Source of the DNA: an uncultured Acidobacteriota bacterium
GTDB taxonomy: Bacteria > Acidobacteriota > Polarisedimenticolia > Polarisedimenticolales > Polarisedimenticolaceae
Assembly (NCBI GenBank): GCA_963824225.1
Contig: CAWGOF010000003.1
Span: 3,040,847-3,104,846 of the forward strand
DNA: 64,000 bases
Direction: 5' to 3'
The position numbers and the translations under genes were made by a program. This document shows, one piece after another, positions 5,479 through 14,768 of the stretch. The notes beneath the pieces are model-generated. The model searched no databases and had not been told where the DNA came from. It saw only the letters and a list, made by a program, of their open reading frames with translations. The stretch's first letter is position 1, and each line of letters starts with the position of its first letter.

Positions 5479-7395
5479 TCAGTCGGGGTCGGGGTGGCCC
5501 TTGAGCTGGGCGCGCAGCTCCATGTTGCGCACGAGCCGATGCAGGTAGTTCGGGTGCACGTCGAGCAGCTTGGCCGCCATGCCGTGGTTGCCGTGCGCCT
5601 CTTCGAACGCCTGCAGAATCACCCGCTTCTTCACCTCGAGGACCGCCTCGTGGTACCCGCCCGCCGGAGCGGCGCTCGTGCCGCGCGGCACGGCCTCGAG
5701 CAGCTGCTCCGGTAGATCCTCGGGCAGCACGAGATCCGCCGCGCCGAGGACGACCGCACGCTCGATCGCGTTCTCGAGCTCGCGCACGTTGCCGGGCCAG
5801 GCGTAGGCCATCAGGCAGGCGCGCGCGGCGGGGCTGATCCCGGTGACGCGCCGGTTGCACTTCGCCGCGAACTTCTCGGCGAAGTACCGCGACAGCAGCG
5901 GAATGTCGTCCTTGCGGTCCCGCAGCGCGGGCGCGCGCACCGAGACCACGTTGATCCGGTAGTACAGGTCCTCCCGGAACGTCCCGCCGTGCACCGCCTG
6001 CTGCAGGTCGCGGTTCGTCGCGCAGATGACCCGCACGTCGATCTTGATCGGCCGCGTGCCGCCGACGCGATCGAGCTCGCGCTCTTGCAAGACGCGCAGC
6101 AGCTTGGCCTGGAGCGCCGGCGCCAGCTCGCCGATCTCGTCGAGGAACACGGTGCCGCCGTGGGCCAGCTCGAGCTTGCCCTTCTTCTGCGCCACGGCCC
6201 CCGTGAACGCGCCCTTCTCGTGGCCGAAGAGCTCGCTCTCGAGCAGCGACTCGGCCAGGGCCGCGCAGTTGATCGCCACGAACGGCTGGCTCGCGCGCGG
6301 GCTGTTGCGGTGGATCGCCCGGGCCACGAGCTCCTTGCCCGTCCCGCTCTCGCCGTGGATCAGCACCGTCGAGTTGCTCGGCGCGACCTTGGCCACGAAC
6401 TCGTAGACCGAGCGCATGGCGCCGCTCTCGCCGATCATGTTGTGCTCGATCGCCAGGTCCTGCCGCAGGCGCTCGTTCTCCTTGCCGAGCTGCTCGCTGT
6501 GCGACGTGCGGTCGAACGCGCCCGCGGCCATCCCGGCCACGGCGGCGAGGAGCCGCAGGTGGTCGACGTCGAACTTCTTGCCCGGCGCCGACGCGTCGAC
6601 GTAGATCGCGCCGAGCTTCCGGCCGTCGACCCGCAGCGGGACCGCGAGTACCGACCGCACGCCCTGCAGGCTCGGCGCTCCGCTGAAGTCCTCGCACGCG
6701 AGGAGGTCGTTCGACAGCACGGCGACGCTCTTCGACAGCACGCGCTCGACGATCGTCTGGCTCACGCGCACGCCGGCCGCCGAGCCGTCGCGGATCTTCG
6801 CGTAGCCCGGACCGATCTGGCCGTCGGCCTCGAGCAGCAGGATCGCGCCGCGCTCGGCCGGGACGACCTCGAACACCGAGGCCAGCAGCTGGTCCGCCAG
6901 GTCCTCGACGGTCGACGGCGCGTTGACCACGGACGCGACGTGCACGAGCGTCCGCAGGTCCTGCATCACGCGGCTGTACGGCGAGTCGCTCGCCGGATCG
7001 CCCGGGCCCCCGAGCTTGCGCGCGTCGTCCCACGGCAGCTCGACCGGTGCGGCGCCGAGGACGTTGCGCGCCAGCTCGACGCTCGTCTTGGGCGACTGCT
7101 CCGCGTCATGCACCAGGAACAACAGGACCGAGTCGCCGACGCGCACGTGGTCCCCGTGGGACAGGCGCTGGCGCTTGACCGGCACGCCGTTGACCAGGGT
7201 CCCGTTCGTGCTGTCCAGGTCGTTCACCTGGTAGCCCTGATTCGTCTGACGGATCACGCAGTGGCGGCGCGAGACGAGCGGCTCCTGGAGCCGCAGCCCA
7301 TTCACCTCGTCGCGGCCGATCGACAGCTCCTCGGTCGAGATCTCGACGACGGCGCCATTCCTGGGTCCAGCGATCACGGCGATGCGCGGCGTCAT
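5479..7395 (-). CDS. sigma54-dependent transcriptional activator (bEBP) with N-terminal FHA and GAF domains
   Basis: Start ATG at 7393-7395 ([11 protein letters not shown]..., preceded by GGGGAGAG RBS); FHA motif ([28 protein letters not shown]), GAF region, AAA+ sigma54-interaction domain with GESGTGKE Walker A and GAFTGA, C-terminal HTH. The upstream in-frame extension of the ORF track (to 7653) runs through a terminator hairpin and was not adopted. Confidence 0.85.
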
Positions 7396-7520
7396 GGGTC
7401 GGCAGCTCTCCCCTGCAGGTGGCGTCGGCGGAGCCAGCTTCCCGGGGCTGGTCCCGGCGTCCCCTAATCTACCGCGGTCGGGCGCGGGCGGCGGAACCGC
7501 GGGGTCGAGGACGCGAAAAA

Positions 7521-7569
7521 AGCGCGGAGGCGGATTCCCCCTGAGGTCACCGCCTCCGCGAACAGGGGA
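7521..7569 (-). terminator. intrinsic-terminator-like hairpin in leader between sigma54 promoter B and the activator gene
   Basis: minus-strand reading: GCGGAGGCGG-(16 nt loop)-CCGCCTCCGCG followed by CTTTTTTCGCG; same stem sequence as hairpin at 14712-14745. Confidence 0.55.
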
Positions 7570-7628
7570 GTGTGGATGAAGCGACGTCGATGGTTGCGGC
7601 ATTTCGAATTCCCTCGGCTCCTGGAAGC

Positions 7629-7644
7629 AGCAAGGCAAATGCCA
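7629..7644 (-). promoter_or_regulatory. sigma54 (-24/-12) promoter B
   Basis: minus-strand TGGCATTTGCCTTGCT = GG-N10-GC matching TGGCAC-N5-TTGCW consensus; ~235 nt upstream of activator start. Confidence 0.6.
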
Positions 7645-7695
7645 GAGCGCCACGCGCGCAAAACCCAGCGAATCCTTGGCTGCGGGGCGGGGAGC

Positions 7696-7711
7696 CTATC
7701 CGAACGGATAG
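7696..7711. promoter_or_regulatory. palindromic upstream-activator-site-like motif CTATCCG-AA-CGGATAG
   Basis: perfect palindrome 52 bp upstream of promoter B; same motif at 8541-8556 and 14576-14589. Confidence 0.5.
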
Positions 7712-7756
7712 TCGGGAGGCGGGGGGCTAACCGGTGAGATAGTCCAGAAAGGCGAA

Positions 7757-7790
7757 GGCGGGATCCTTACCGGGTCCCGCCTTCGCGCGC
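7757..7790 (-). terminator. hairpin terminator following the peptide array
   Basis: minus-strand GGCGGGACCCGGTAAGGATCCCGCC followed by TTCGCCTTTCTGG, ~25 nt after stop of peptide copy 1. Confidence 0.5.
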
Positions 7791-13379: not shown

Positions 13380-14521
13380 GGCGCAGCGCCGGCGGCGCGC
13401 AGGAGCAGCACGGCCGGTGAGACGCGCTCGACCTCGACCTCGATCGTGCCCGGAAGGCCGTGCTCGAGCGGCAGCTCGGGGTTCGATGCGCCGTCGACTT
13501 CGAGCTCGACGCGCACACGCCCGTCGCGCAGCTCGGTCGACATGTGCGCGACGCGCGCGCGCAGGCTCCCGTACTGGCTCGACGGGAAGCTCGAAAGCCT
13601 CAGCCGCGCCGGCTGTCCCGGGCGGATCCGGCCCAGCGCGGCCTCGGGCGCGAACTCGGCCACGACGTGCAGATCGCCCGAGCCGAGAACCACGCCGAGC
13701 CGGTCGCCGGCGTGCACGAACGCCCCGGCCTCGATCGGTGCGGCCTCGACGATCGTCCCGCGCACGGGCGCGCGGATCGACTTCTCCTCGGCCTCGCGCT
13801 CGAGACGGCCCGCAGCGACCTTCCCCGCACCGATCTCGCCCAGGACGCGCGATACCTCGCGGCGCAGCTGCTCGATCCGCGCCGCGCGGTCGCGCTCGCG
13901 CGTCTGGAGCTCGGGCTCGAGTCGCGCAGCCGCGAGGCGCAGGCTCTCGGCGCTGGCGTTGGCCCGCTCGGCCTCGGCCGCCGCGCGCTCGTACTCGGCG
14001 TCAGACAGGAGCCCCGTGTCGTGCAGCCGCTTCGCGCGATTCAGCGCCTGGGCCGCGGCGGTCGCGGTGACGCTCGCCTCCGTGTGCCGCGCTCGCGCCT
14101 CGGCCAACCCGGCGCGCGCGGCCTCGCGCTCCTGGCCGAGCGCCTGCTCCTGGATCCGGATCTCGCCCTCGAGCGCGCTGAGCTGCGGCGCGAGCGCCCC
14201 CGTGCGCGTCCGCGCCTCCTCGATCCCCAGCCGCTCGGGCTCGGTCGCCAGGGCCACGAGGACCTCGCCCTCCTCGACGGCGCGGCCGAGCGCGAGCGCG
14301 CTCGACACGACGCGCCCCGACACCGGGGCCTCGAGCGCGTGGGCCGCGCGGTCGAGCTCGACCCGCGCCGCCGTGCTCACCTCGTGCACGGCCACGCGGG
14401 CCAGGAACAACCAGGCGGTCCAGGCGGCCAGGAGCACGGCGCCCAGGCCGAGCGCGAGCACGGTTCGGCCGTGCCCGTCGCCCGCGAGACCCCGCATCGT
14501 GCGTGGGAACTCTTCGGACAC
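13376..14521 (-). CDS. HlyD-family membrane fusion/secretion protein
   Basis: 381 aa; N-terminal TM helix, long coiled-coil (AEYERAAAEAERANASAESLRLAAARLEPELQ...), C-terminal beta-barrel region; stop overlaps PCAT ATG (ATGA). Start GTG 14519-14521 or ATG ~14497. Confidence 0.75.
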   Translation of the reverse strand: MSEEFPRTMRGLAGDGHGRTVLALGLGAVLLAAWTAWLFLARVAVHEVSTAARVELDRAAHALEAPVSGRVVSSALALGRAVEEGEVLVALATEPERLGIEEARTRTGALAPQLSALEGEIRIQEQALGQEREAARAGLAEARARHTEASVTATAAAQALNRAKRLHDTGLLSDAEYERAAAEAERANASAESLRLAAARLEPELQTRERDRAARIEQLRREVSRVLGEIGAGKVAAGRLEREAEEKSIRAPVRGTIVEAAPIEAGAFVHAGDRLGVVLGSGDLHVVAEFAPEAALGRIRPGQPARLRLSSFPSSQYGSLRARVAHMSTELRDGRVRVELEVDGASNPELPLEHGLPGTIEVEVERVSPAVLLLRAAGAAP

Positions 14522-14545
14522 GGCCCGACTCTACCGCACTCGCCG

Positions 14546-14589
14546 ATCGGATAGTCGGGCGGCCTCGAGGCAATCCGATCGGATAGGCC
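14546..14589. promoter_or_regulatory. UAS-like palindromes (CCGATCGGATAG; ATCCGATCGGATAG) between HlyD operon start and sigma54 promoter A
   Basis: two copies of the TATCCG-N2-CGGATA-type palindrome, 30-75 bp upstream of promoter A. Confidence 0.45.
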
Positions 14590-14619
14590 GCGCCGGGGAG
14601 AGCCCCGTTTTTCGGCTGG

Positions 14620-14635
14620 CATCGCCGTTGCTATT
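14620..14635 (+). promoter_or_regulatory. sigma54 (-24/-12) promoter A
   Basis: TGGCATCGCCGTTGCT on plus strand; one mismatch from promoter C. Confidence 0.6.
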
Positions 14636-14646
14636 TCTCTTGGCCG

Positions 14647-14756
14647 AGGCCGAACGAGAAAGGACGCGAATCAGACCTACCCCCTGCGGCACAGCGAAAA
14701 CCCCCCTGCAGGCGGAGGCGGAGCGAGCAAGGTTCCGCCTCCGCGTCTTTTTGTTT
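14647..14756 (+). ncRNA. candidate sigma54-dependent small RNA or terminated leader (~110 nt)
   Basis: predicted TSS ~12 nt past promoter A; no ATG-initiated ORF; ends in perfect 10-bp stem GCGGAGGCGG/CCGCCTCCGC (14712-14745) + GTCTTTTTGTTT. Confidence 0.35.
14712..14756 (+). terminator. intrinsic terminator hairpin
   Basis: GCGGAGGCGG-agcgagcaaggtt-CCGCCTCCGC followed by GTCTTTTTGTTT. Confidence 0.6.
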
Positions 14757-14768
14757 AGACTCTCGCGC

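Follow-up and report, generated by a model that had tools for sequence, protein, structure and literature searches.

The stretch of DNA considered here, referred to below as the window, comprises 64,000 nt from an uncultured member of the Polarisedimenticolaceae, phylum Acidobacteriota (assembly GCA_963824225.1, contig CAWGOF010000003.1, positions 3,040,847 to 3,104,846). Within 12 kb it contains a recurring DNA site, three promoters of the sigma-54 type, peptide genes as cargo, an exporter and a syntenic receptor kinase, and this region is probably a self-contained module for peptide production and export under sigma-54 control. The minus strand carries, in order, genes for a 381 aa HlyD-type periplasmic adaptor (14521-13376; HlyD_3), an 889 aa peptidase-containing ATP-binding cassette (ABC) transporter with C39, transmembrane and nucleotide-binding domains (13379-10710), and a second, 716 aa ABC exporter subunit without the peptidase domain (10713-8563; ABC_tran). 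These are followed by palindromic sites and promoter C (8556-8453), six peptide genes (8409-7814), a hairpin (7787-7748), further sites and promoter B (7742-7629), a transcribed stretch of approximately 100 nt, a terminator (7581-7504), a -10-like box and the gene for a sigma-54 activator (7395-5479). A further promoter unit, A, lies between the HlyD gene and a divergent plus strand gene encoding a secreted tetratricopeptide repeat (TPR) protein (14769-16451).

Two sets of loci were used for comparison. Close relatives, found through protein searches with the activator and look-ups of genomic context, are the syntenic loci L161-L166 and L170-L173, whose activators are 77-96% identical. The distant set was obtained by a scan with the peptidase-ABC protein in which each species was represented by a single genome, giving 80 loci at 49-58% identity, mostly from Acidobacteriota, with others from Planctomycetota, Gemmatimonadota, Chloroflexota, Myxococcota, Verrucomicrobiota, Methylococcales and further groups. 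These loci are phylogenetically non-independent, those bearing an activator including ten from Acidobacteriaceae and four from Bryobacteraceae.

Across the window, which has a G+C content of approximately 70%, the -24/-12 pattern TGGCAY-N5-TTGCW (TGGCAYNNNNNTTGCW) has exactly three matches, compared with an expectation of 0.01 from dinucleotide shuffles (n = 100), none of which reached three. In each the GG and GC are spaced by exactly 10 nt within TGGCAC-N5-TTGCW. Promoter B (7629-7644, minus strand; TGGCATTTGCCTTGCT) is retained in L161-L166. Promoter C (8453-8468, minus strand; TGGCATCGCCATTGCT), 59 nt ahead of the first peptide ATG, is kept in L161, L163 and L165, and across phyla, while promoter A (14617-14632, plus strand; TGGCATCGCCGTTGCT) is missing from those three relatives and has orthologues in L172 and L173 (TGGCATCGCACTTGCT). 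A first-pass annotation of this DNA had already recognised three near-identical -24/-12 promoters, and their sequences stand as it wrote them; its sole error was a 3 nt slip in the position of promoter A, given as 14620-14635.

The same annotation proposed that these promoters share upstream palindromes, which is borne out by the distribution of the sequence TATCCGNNCGGATA. This is perfect at 7697-7710 and 8542-8555, and has one mismatch at 14572-14585 and two at 14540-14553; these four sites are the only matches in the window with up to two mismatches, all fall within promoter regions, and the palindromes are conserved in relatives. A search for the extended 16-mer, CTATC-N6-GATAG, allowing up to one mismatch gave five matches where 0.35 were expected, four of them within the three promoter regions, and added a second site at promoter B. 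Hence promoter B is preceded by the perfect palindrome B1 (7696-7711; CTATCCGAACGGATAG), which is kept in relatives and centred approximately 85 nt upstream of the predicted transcription start, and by B2 (7727-7742; CTAACCGGTGAGATAG), which has one mismatch and lies 31 nt from B1. At promoter C, the distal site C1 (8541-8556; CTATCCGAGCGGATAG) is perfect, with its centre approximately 106 nt upstream of the predicted start, and the proximal C2 (8498-8513; minus strand AGAACCTAACGGATAG, in relatives GAGAACC-N2-3-CGGATAGC) is a half-palindromic half-site. Site A1 (14571-14586; CAATCCGATCGGATAG) has one mismatch, the equivalent place in L172 being occupied by a perfect CTATCCGCACGGATAG (read on the L172 plus strand), and A2 (14539-14554; CTCGCCGATCGGATAG) has a degenerate left half. 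There are thus two sites per promoter, 30-125 nt upstream of it and approximately 31-44 nt apart, with centres approximately 63-116 nt upstream of the predicted starts, a spacing that is normal enhancer geometry for sigma-54 activators. Alignments of close relatives show that, within otherwise variable spacers, the conserved islands are the terminator of the peptide array, the paired sites, the -24/-12 elements, the peptide 5' untranslated region (UTR) with its ribosome-binding site, and a block downstream of promoter B. On these sequence grounds, it is near-certain that the locus has three sigma-54-type promoters with shared paired sites and that the module is conserved.

The candidate regulator of these promoters is encoded beside them. 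The 638 aa protein (5479-7395, minus strand) has the architecture of a bacterial enhancer-binding protein, consisting of FHA, GAF, AAA+ and Fis-type helix-turn-helix (HTH) regions that correspond to the Pfam domains FHA, GAF, Sigma54_activat, AAA_lid and, weakly, HTH_8. The sigma-54 interaction domain is matched by PF00158 with E = 6e-75, and the GAFTGA loop, Walker A and B motifs and FLDEIGE can be seen in the sequence. The FHA domain (PF00498, 68.1 bits) retains the residues of the phosphopeptide pocket, IGR28, S42-R-R-H45 and N64-G (GR..SRxH..NG). The closest solved structures are those of NifA (9qq6) and ZraR (1ojl). Full-length orthologues, 34-42% identical over the FHA-GAF part, adjoin peptide genes in 16 of the 80 distant loci.

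Similar palindromes accompany these orthologues. In Bryobacteraceae, CCCTATCC-N4-GGATAGGG and CTATC-N6-GATAG precede both a -24/-12 element and a gene for a leader peptide, such that the peptide promoter is preceded by two adjacent CTATC-N6-GATAG palindromes; in Acidobacteriaceae, two CTAAC-N6-GT(T/G)AG sites take the place of the CTATC type. Five further loci, including L167, L168, L169 and L083, were selected solely by the similarity of their activators and have different cargo, and these contain CTATCCGATCGGATAG, CTATCCAAATGGATAG, CTATCCGGTCGGATAG or CTAACCGATCGGTTAG in the spacer beside the activator gene. A perfect CTATCC-N4-GGATAG is present in the four named loci (as CTATCCGATCGGATAG in L167 and L169), where a perfect palindrome with ten specified bases is expected by chance approximately 0.02 times per 22 kb locus. 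Four of the five, including L167, L168 and L169, have a -24/-12 element 70-125 nt downstream of the site, L083 being without a strong match. Furthermore, the half-site co-varies with the recognition helix of the HTH, the TATC type occurring with one helix and the TAAC type with HPNHLFRL or HPNSLLRL. Because the motif accompanies orthologous activators and its half-site co-varies with their recognition helix, the sequences support the palindromes being cognate sites of the adjacent FHA-GAF activator. Conservation of the motifs near orthologous genes was the point on which the first-pass annotation had staked its proposal, and the same palindrome does stand beside orthologous activators in unrelated genomes.

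In a number of these genomes the site is associated with cargo other than leader peptides. The CTATCCGATCGGATAG site occurs in L167 (9251-9664, minus strand), L082 (approximately 3500-3700, minus strand), L083 (upstream of 8081) and L169 (7435-9883), together in most cases with a -24/-12 element, where the neighbouring genes encode small signal-peptide proteins with the motif (A/N)xIPFxFxVG..LPAGxY or ORFs of unknown type. When metagenomes were scanned with the activator, the matches were for the most part generic paralogues, and their loci contained no leader peptides.

The six tandem genes downstream of promoter C (minus strand; 7814-7888, 7936-8010, 8035-8109, 8135-8209, 8235-8309 and 8335-8409) are 24 codons long, each encoding MKTKSQI(K/R)AG followed by AESV(S/A)LPPRK(S/T)YIR. 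The precursor MKTKSQIKAG-AESVSLPPRKSYIR (in full, MKTKSQIKAGAESVSLPPRKSYIR) is predicted to give a mature cationic 14-mer with a pI of approximately 10. Close relatives have two or three such genes each, with an unchanged leader and drifting cores (VTSVALPPRKNYIK, STAVRLPSRKNYV, GATVRLPSRKSFIP, VTSVRLPKPKF and AESVALPPRKNYIR). Codon differences among these relatives at A9, G10, V14, L16, P17 and R19 are synonymous and preserve the peptide, and for this reason the open reading frames (ORFs) are read as protein.

Whereas the array might have been taken for a local curiosity, it belongs instead to a large family that has no annotation and is associated with an exporter of its own. ORFs matching M-K-(V/T/I)-K-(T/S)-x-(V/I/L)-K-A-G, representing the ten-residue family leader MKxK(T/S)xxKAG, were found in 49 of 81 sources. 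There are 147 of them, 112 distinct, often in arrays of 2-15 and with a median tail of eight residues, examples being SALWGS, NALWGS, PGSSWDG and RKRK. The search pattern matched nothing in approximately 0.7 Mb of control loci, nor elsewhere in the window. The peptides have no Pfam or NCBIfam match even at E = 10, and in text and keyword searches of the literature the leader strings were not found printed, nor the module described. In longer precursors the leader motif recurs ahead of each core (for instance, ...HG-LRVKSNVKAG-GWRINHNQT...), as would be expected of a protease recognition sequence.

Such repeats of leader-like sequence within one ORF are found in L048 (7788-7943), where the product has the form MKVKSNVKAGG-LNLNHNQTINRENHG-LRVKSNVKAGG-WRINHNQTIAREAE, and in L002, L008, L030, L036 and L050, with cores containing NHNQT or NHNET. 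A database search with the L048 member gave 542 relatives; of these, 120 were listed, all without a Pfam domain and, with few exceptions, lacking a name or labelled 'hypothetical'. At the other extreme of arrangement, L015 (6653-8326; Pyrinomonadaceae) has 14 tandem leader-peptide genes, all different, and one more on the opposite strand; their cores, such as PQPNDPPIVVTGG and VEPPIIVQGGG, are diversified, compared with the near-identical copies in the window.

The placing of a sigma-54 promoter ahead of the peptide array, from which the first-pass annotation concluded that promoter C drives the array, is conserved across phyla, in keeping with that conclusion. Matches to the -24/-12 element of at least 9/11 within 200 nt upstream were found for 18 of 20 arrays with an activator and 7 of 44 without, a difference for which Fisher's test gives p = 2e-8, a value that overstates the support since the loci share kinship. 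The matches lie 59-132 nt ahead of the first ATG, and the background frequency is 1.8% of random 200 nt segments. From its sequence context, promoter C appears to be the inducible step for the peptides.

The association of the exporter genes is conserved across most of the distant set, in which HlyD orthologues are present in 61 of the 80 loci and the second ABC subunit adjoins the peptidase-ABC gene in 78. The Peptidase_C39 domain (PF03412) scores 73.9 bits against a cut-off of 22; in a five-sequence alignment, Q12, C18, H98 and P115 are invariant, and D114 of the DP motif is Asp in four sequences and N in L161. The structure of PCAT1 (4ry2) matches residues 305-848 of the transporter, corresponding to its transmembrane and nucleotide-binding part. 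The best NCBIfam matches of the exporter include NHLP bacteriocin exporters, those of the second ABC subunit including NHLM_micro_ABC2, far below its cut-off.

The peptidase-ABC gene itself harbours two in-frame copies of a palindromic element of approximately 45-57 nt (11524-11580 and 12566-12612; core GGGGTCAGGTCTTTCGACCTGACCC), which add GVRSKDLTPRPDP-like segments to variable linkers at aa 259-271 and 604-625. No copies are present in the orthologues or in any locus fetched. These look like in-frame insertions of a miniature mobile element, and palindromic elements of Rickettsia are known in-frame insertions of a comparable kind.

The gene that abuts the activator, and converges on it, encodes a receptor Hanks-type Ser/Thr kinase (3140-5416, plus strand; Pkinase 128.8 bits, TPR_12 134.5 bits) with the motifs IHRDIKPSN and IDFG. 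The predicted topology is of a cytoplasmic kinase, one transmembrane (TM) helix at aa 355-384 (from a hydropathy scan) and an extracytoplasmic TPR domain. The gene is syntenic in L161, L165 and L166. An association between Hanks-type kinases and the FHA activator, as suggested by the first-pass annotation, is evident in the distant set, where 15 of the 16 activator loci have a Ser/Thr kinase next to the module, compared with 16 of 64 other loci that have one anywhere within approximately 22 kb. The module-linked kinases are of the receptor type, in which the kinase and one TM helix are followed by a PD40 beta-propeller in Acidobacteria or by TPR in the clade of the window.

Promoters A and B are both predicted to lead into short, terminated transcripts. 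The RNA from promoter B is predicted to extend from approximately 7618 to 7516, and its 3' block (7504-7581, minus strand) comprises CUCCCCUG and a hairpin, GCGGAGGCGG / CCGCCUCCGC, with a U6 run, forming an intrinsic terminator. In five relatives the stem is invariant and the flank and loop nearly so; the invariant block, CTCCCCTG-yTC-GCGGAGGCGG-loop-CCGCCTCCGCG-T6, lies at distances from promoter B that vary from approximately 17 to 150 nt among relatives. The predicted transcript from promoter A (14644-14755, plus strand), approximately 110 nt long and without an ORF, begins with a segment similar to the 5' UTR and start codon region of the peptide genes, followed by CCCCCCUG, a terminator (14712-14744) and a U-run; its predicted fold has an energy of -44.8 kcal/mol (z = -2.5). 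Units A and B share a CCCCTG motif and identical terminator stems, and the hairpin after the last peptide gene (7748-7787, minus strand; GAAGGCGGGACCC..TCCCGCCUUC), itself a conserved block, is a paralogue of their terminators. Covariance model R1, derived from the blocks of both units, scored the B block at 81-90 bits and unit A at 66.9 bits, and also had weak matches at the array terminators of the window and relatives. A search of 5-17 kb of the window against Rfam 15 gave only sub-threshold chance matches to microRNA-like hairpins.

In L163, a decayed peptide ORF, MKFKSRMAQPLPYSKRSIPR, persists between promoter B and the terminator (approximately 9930-10000), without KAG or a good ribosome-binding site. 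As unit B of L163 keeps this degenerate ORF, unit B appears to derive from a peptide-gene cassette. Units A, B and C look from their sequences like paralogous cassettes, of which A and B have lost the peptide ORF, such that their RNAs look like relics. Unit A is present with a perfect site, promoter and terminator in L172, the HlyD protein of which is 80% identical, and in L173, ruling out that it is unique to this genome.

Boxes resembling -10 elements suggest a separate basis for expression of the larger genes. One, TAGATT (7466-7471, minus strand; within CGGTAGATTAGGGG), follows the B terminator approximately 71 nt before the activator ATG; it is kept as GGTAGATT in the window, L166 and L161, with GGTATAGAGT in L163 and L165. 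Another, TAGAGT (14528-14533, minus strand), abutted by site A2, lies 7-12 nt before the GTG of the HlyD gene and is kept as GGTAGAGT in L161, L163, L165 and L172. A third, TAGACT (approximately 14757-14762, plus strand), likewise conserved, is 7 nt before the ATG of the TPR gene. These suggest sigma-70-type promoters, which at the HlyD and TPR genes would give nearly leaderless mRNAs, and the exporter operon and the activator gene would therefore each have a candidate promoter of this type. Since an invariant terminator, and then this -10-like box, intervene between promoter B and the activator gene, the promoter is likely to make chiefly a short RNA, and could effect autoregulation only via read-through of the terminator. 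Promoter B does lie upstream of the activator gene, as the proposal of autoregulation in the first-pass annotation required, although simple operon control does not fit this arrangement. Likewise, a terminated short RNA is again predicted for promoter A, but control of the TPR gene at which this promoter points is doubtful, as the terminator precedes that gene and unit A is patchily distributed in relatives.

Three further features of these RNAs were considered and set aside. Pairing of CUCCCCUG with CAGGGGAG at the ribosome-binding site upstream of the activator ATG (7395) was rejected as a conserved interaction because L166, the 96% identical relative, has lost the complementary stretch and L161 has it in altered form. 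The short ORF (MPQPST...) within the promoter-B transcript is the activator frame extended upstream, and relatives do not conserve it. Nor do the relatives maintain a pseudoknot of CUCCCCUG with the loop of the terminator, where C has changed to G in three of them without a compensating change.

Several neighbouring genes are of less certain membership. The first-pass annotation counted two adjacent kinases; the first abuts the activator, as described, but the second (19050-21410, plus strand), which has the same order of kinase, one TM helix and TPR, begins 4.3 kb beyond the cluster. It is followed by a PP2C/SpoIIE-type phosphatase (21461-22429, minus strand), the domains of both being assigned from Pfam. 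Situated 4.3-7 kb from the end of the cluster, the two might be part of one phospho-signalling unit with it, though their membership is uncertain; a kinase is also found at the syntenic position in L171. The secreted TPR protein (560 aa; 14769-16451, plus strand), of uncertain membership, has TPR matches and a signal-peptide-like N-terminus; as a conserved module member it was rejected, having a homologue in one of 80 distant loci and being syntenic solely among close relatives. A long perfect hairpin (5411-5482; GGGGACACTCTT...AAGAGTGTCCCC) separates the convergent genes for the kinase and the activator; it is probably a bidirectional terminator, and its Rfam matches were chance ones of the microRNA-like kind. 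Upstream of the kinase gene, the window encodes a 169 aa protein (2455-2964, minus strand) with a signal peptide and a C-terminal TM helix ending LLRRR, reminiscent of a sorting signal, and no Pfam match; in L161, L163 and L165 its gene keeps this synteny, adjoining that of the kinase or of the activator. In L006 (Acidobacteriaceae), an FAD/BBE-type oxidase (7034-8533, minus strand) is situated just upstream of HlyD.

The motifs, domain architectures, conservation and co-occurrence set out above were seen directly in the sequences, and from them we infer activator binding, dependence on sigma-54, cleavage after AG, export, a link from kinase to FHA domain and a role for the peptide. Dimers of the activator would bind the paired 16 bp CTATC-N6-GATAG sites, and its AAA+ domain would open the complex formed by the sigma-54 holoenzyme. 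Promoter C would then transcribe the six tandem genes, giving the 24-residue precursor, in which the C39 domain of the neighbouring ABC transporter would need only MKTKSQIKAG to recognise and cleave its substrate; this transporter, with the second ABC subunit and HlyD, would release the cationic 14-mer outside the cell. That the adjacent activator binds the sites and drives promoter C, and that precursors are cleaved after KAG and exported by C39-ABC, ABC and HlyD, can be held with good confidence. The FHA domain may read a phospho-threonine made by the neighbouring receptor kinase, and gating of the activator in this manner has about an even chance of being correct. As the TPR domain of the kinase is predicted to be extracytoplasmic, transcription would be gated by an extracytoplasmic signal, for which the most economical candidate would be the exported peptide itself, producing a positive-feedback, quorum-sensing-like loop. 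Promoters A and B would now yield short terminated RNAs, with B perhaps adding read-through into the activator gene. That the peptide is the ligand of the kinase, closing the loop, is speculative and somewhat doubtful. The complete circuit, in which a C39-exported peptide of 5-14 residues is sensed in the periplasm and acts through a TPR or propeller kinase and FHA on the sigma-54 peptide genes and two cassette-derived RNAs, is put forward just as tentatively.

A number of observations weigh against this scheme. The HTH_8 match of the activator, at 17.6 bits, is under the Pfam cut-off of 22 (many orthologues do carry PF02954), and there is no copy of rpoN in the window. Kinases are abundant in these genomes. 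Simple operon control of the activator and TPR genes is hard to reconcile with the strong terminators that follow promoters A and B by approximately 75-100 nt, and of the four close lineages open to examination, three (L161/L170/L171, L163 and L165) have no unit A. Cleavage is putative, in that double-glycine leaders are approximately 15-30 residues long, end in GG, GA or GS and have hydrophobic residues at -4, -7, -12 and -15, while this leader has ten residues, ends in AG and fits the pattern only at -4 (I/V/L); it may nonetheless work like a double-glycine leader. Lastly, in other genomes secreted proteins of unrelated kinds are driven by orthologous activators that share this palindrome, and most activator-less peptide arrays are without a sigma-54 promoter. 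Owing to these last two observations the regulator and cargo are regarded as separable, and the activator with its site would be an older, more widely used module, coupled to different secreted cargos.

The main alternative accepts the regulon and exporter as described, but holds that the peptides are effectors, either microcin- or bacteriocin-like or surface-active, and that the kinase senses another cue, which could be competitors, envelope stress or nutrients. Bacteriocins and microcins are the classical substrates of peptidase-ABC transporters that work with an HlyD adaptor, and the NHLP bacteriocin exporters among the best NCBIfam matches agree with this. The high pI of the mature peptide would also suit an effector, the multiple identical gene copies suggest bulk production, and the up to 15 diversified cores of L015 resemble a repertoire of toxins. 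However, the module shows no conserved gene of immunity-like or modifying type, many cores are only 4-8 residues long (SALWGS and RKRK, for example), which is short for a membrane-active toxin, and the kinase that accompanies the activator is a receptor with TPR or PD40, domains of a peptide-binding type. An effector role is accordingly a serious possibility, if a minority one.

It is rather unlikely, though conceivable, that units A and B are functionless, decaying remnants of peptide cassettes and that only promoter C matters. The degenerate peptide ORF in unit B of L163 (MKFKSRMAQPLPYSKRSIPR), the similarity of the 5' part of A to the peptide 5' UTR, the paralogy of the A, B and array terminators and the absence of unit A from L161, L163 and L165 would all follow from such decay. 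Yet the promoter, sites and 60 nt 3' block of unit B are nearly invariant where the activators are only 77% identical, while the spacer around these islands varies in length and sequence; unit A, too, keeps its sites, promoter and terminator in L172, despite HlyD proteins that are 80% identical.

There is only a slim chance that the palindromes are recognised by another transcription factor, for instance one that represses neighbouring sigma-70-type promoters. The abutting of site A2 on the -10-like box of the HlyD operon is what such a repressor would predict, but the motif follows activator orthologues into unrelated neighbourhoods, with a -24/-12 element in four of five loci, and co-varies with the activator recognition helix. 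Chance matching in a GC-rich genome, a general risk whenever a consensus is sought, is effectively refuted by the shuffle controls and by conservation in orthologous loci.

The circuit proposed, with activation of promoter C by the FHA-GAF protein at its centre, can be compared with several characterised systems. FHA-domain sigma-54 enhancer-binding proteins of Myxococcus xanthus were reportedly described by Jelsbak, Givskov and Kaiser in PNAS in 2005. To our knowledge, FHA activators of sigma-54 have been catalogued for approximately 20 years, although for most of them no kinase, DNA site or target is known. The M. xanthus proteins resemble the activator described here in having an N-terminal FHA domain on a sigma-54 AAA+ protein, a presumed link to Hanks-type kinases and a kinase-rich host genome; in the present family, found mainly through Acidobacteriota, a GAF domain is added, and the CTATC-N6-GATAG site, the mini-peptide array as target and a syntenic receptor kinase can be named. 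The architecture of FHA with a sigma-54 activator is catalogued in M. xanthus by the work that appears as reference 91 in the bibliography of PMC12288465. Similarity to NifA-type activators extends over residues 137-627, where 9qq6 aligns with GAF, AAA+ and HTH, and TIGR01817 scores 439 bits; however, this is under the equivalog cut-off of 528.85, and the activator differs in its extra FHA domain, lack of nif genes and peptide-gene targets.

The streptococcal ComAB/ComCDE and BlpAB/BlpCHR systems, in which a C39-ABC transporter cleaves a Gly-Gly-type leader and the pheromone gene is induced by its own sensing pathway, are alike in logic, with a C39-ABC transporter and a short unmodified peptide, though feedback here is only proposed. 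They use a histidine kinase, response regulator and sigma-70 where a Ser/Thr kinase, FHA domain and sigma-54 are found here, and the present system has a Gram-negative envelope, HlyD, a second ABC subunit and a leader of 10 residues ending in AG rather than approximately 24. Sigma-54-dependent small RNAs next to an activator gene are known as Qrr with LuxO in Vibrio and as Pxr in Myxococcus. Units A and B share with them a -24/-12 promoter and a short, terminated, ORF-less transcript beside a sigma-54 activator gene, but their predicted RNAs have no homology to these or Rfam match and look cassette-derived. The three-gene layout of HlyD, peptidase-ABC and second ABC is that of the NHLP/Nif11 bacteriocin export system (TIGR03794, TIGR03796 and TIGR03797; Haft et al. 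2010, PMC2887384). The exporter scores below the equivalog cut-offs for all three (194.8 vs 853.3, 111.3 vs 709.4 and 32.9 vs 156.2), its leader is 10 residues long where those of NHLP/Nif11 have approximately 70-90, and it has no modification enzymes. Finally, small GG-motif proteins exported by a peptidase-ABC transporter control biofilm in Synechococcus elongatus (PMC4997328). These too are small secreted Gly-Gly-type products of a Gram-negative-type bacterium, serving self-regulation and not killing; their precursors are longer and their regulation is unrelated, no sigma-54, FHA or kinase module being reported for them.

Peptide pheromone circuits are textbook knowledge for Gram-positive bacteria; in bacteria with an outer membrane we know of almost none. 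If the circuit proposed here is correct, it would represent peptide autoinduction in Gram-negative-type soil bacteria, assembled from parts not known to cooperate, through a module spread widely among Acidobacteriota and also found in several further phyla, and there is a real chance that it is a new signalling architecture. The occurrence of all components at a single locus makes the chain from kinase to FHA domain to sigma-54 directly testable. The analysis also brings to light a large family of precursors of 15-25 residues, mostly missed by gene callers in abundant and poorly cultured soil phyla, which is relevant both to natural-product mining and to how these phyla communicate or compete.

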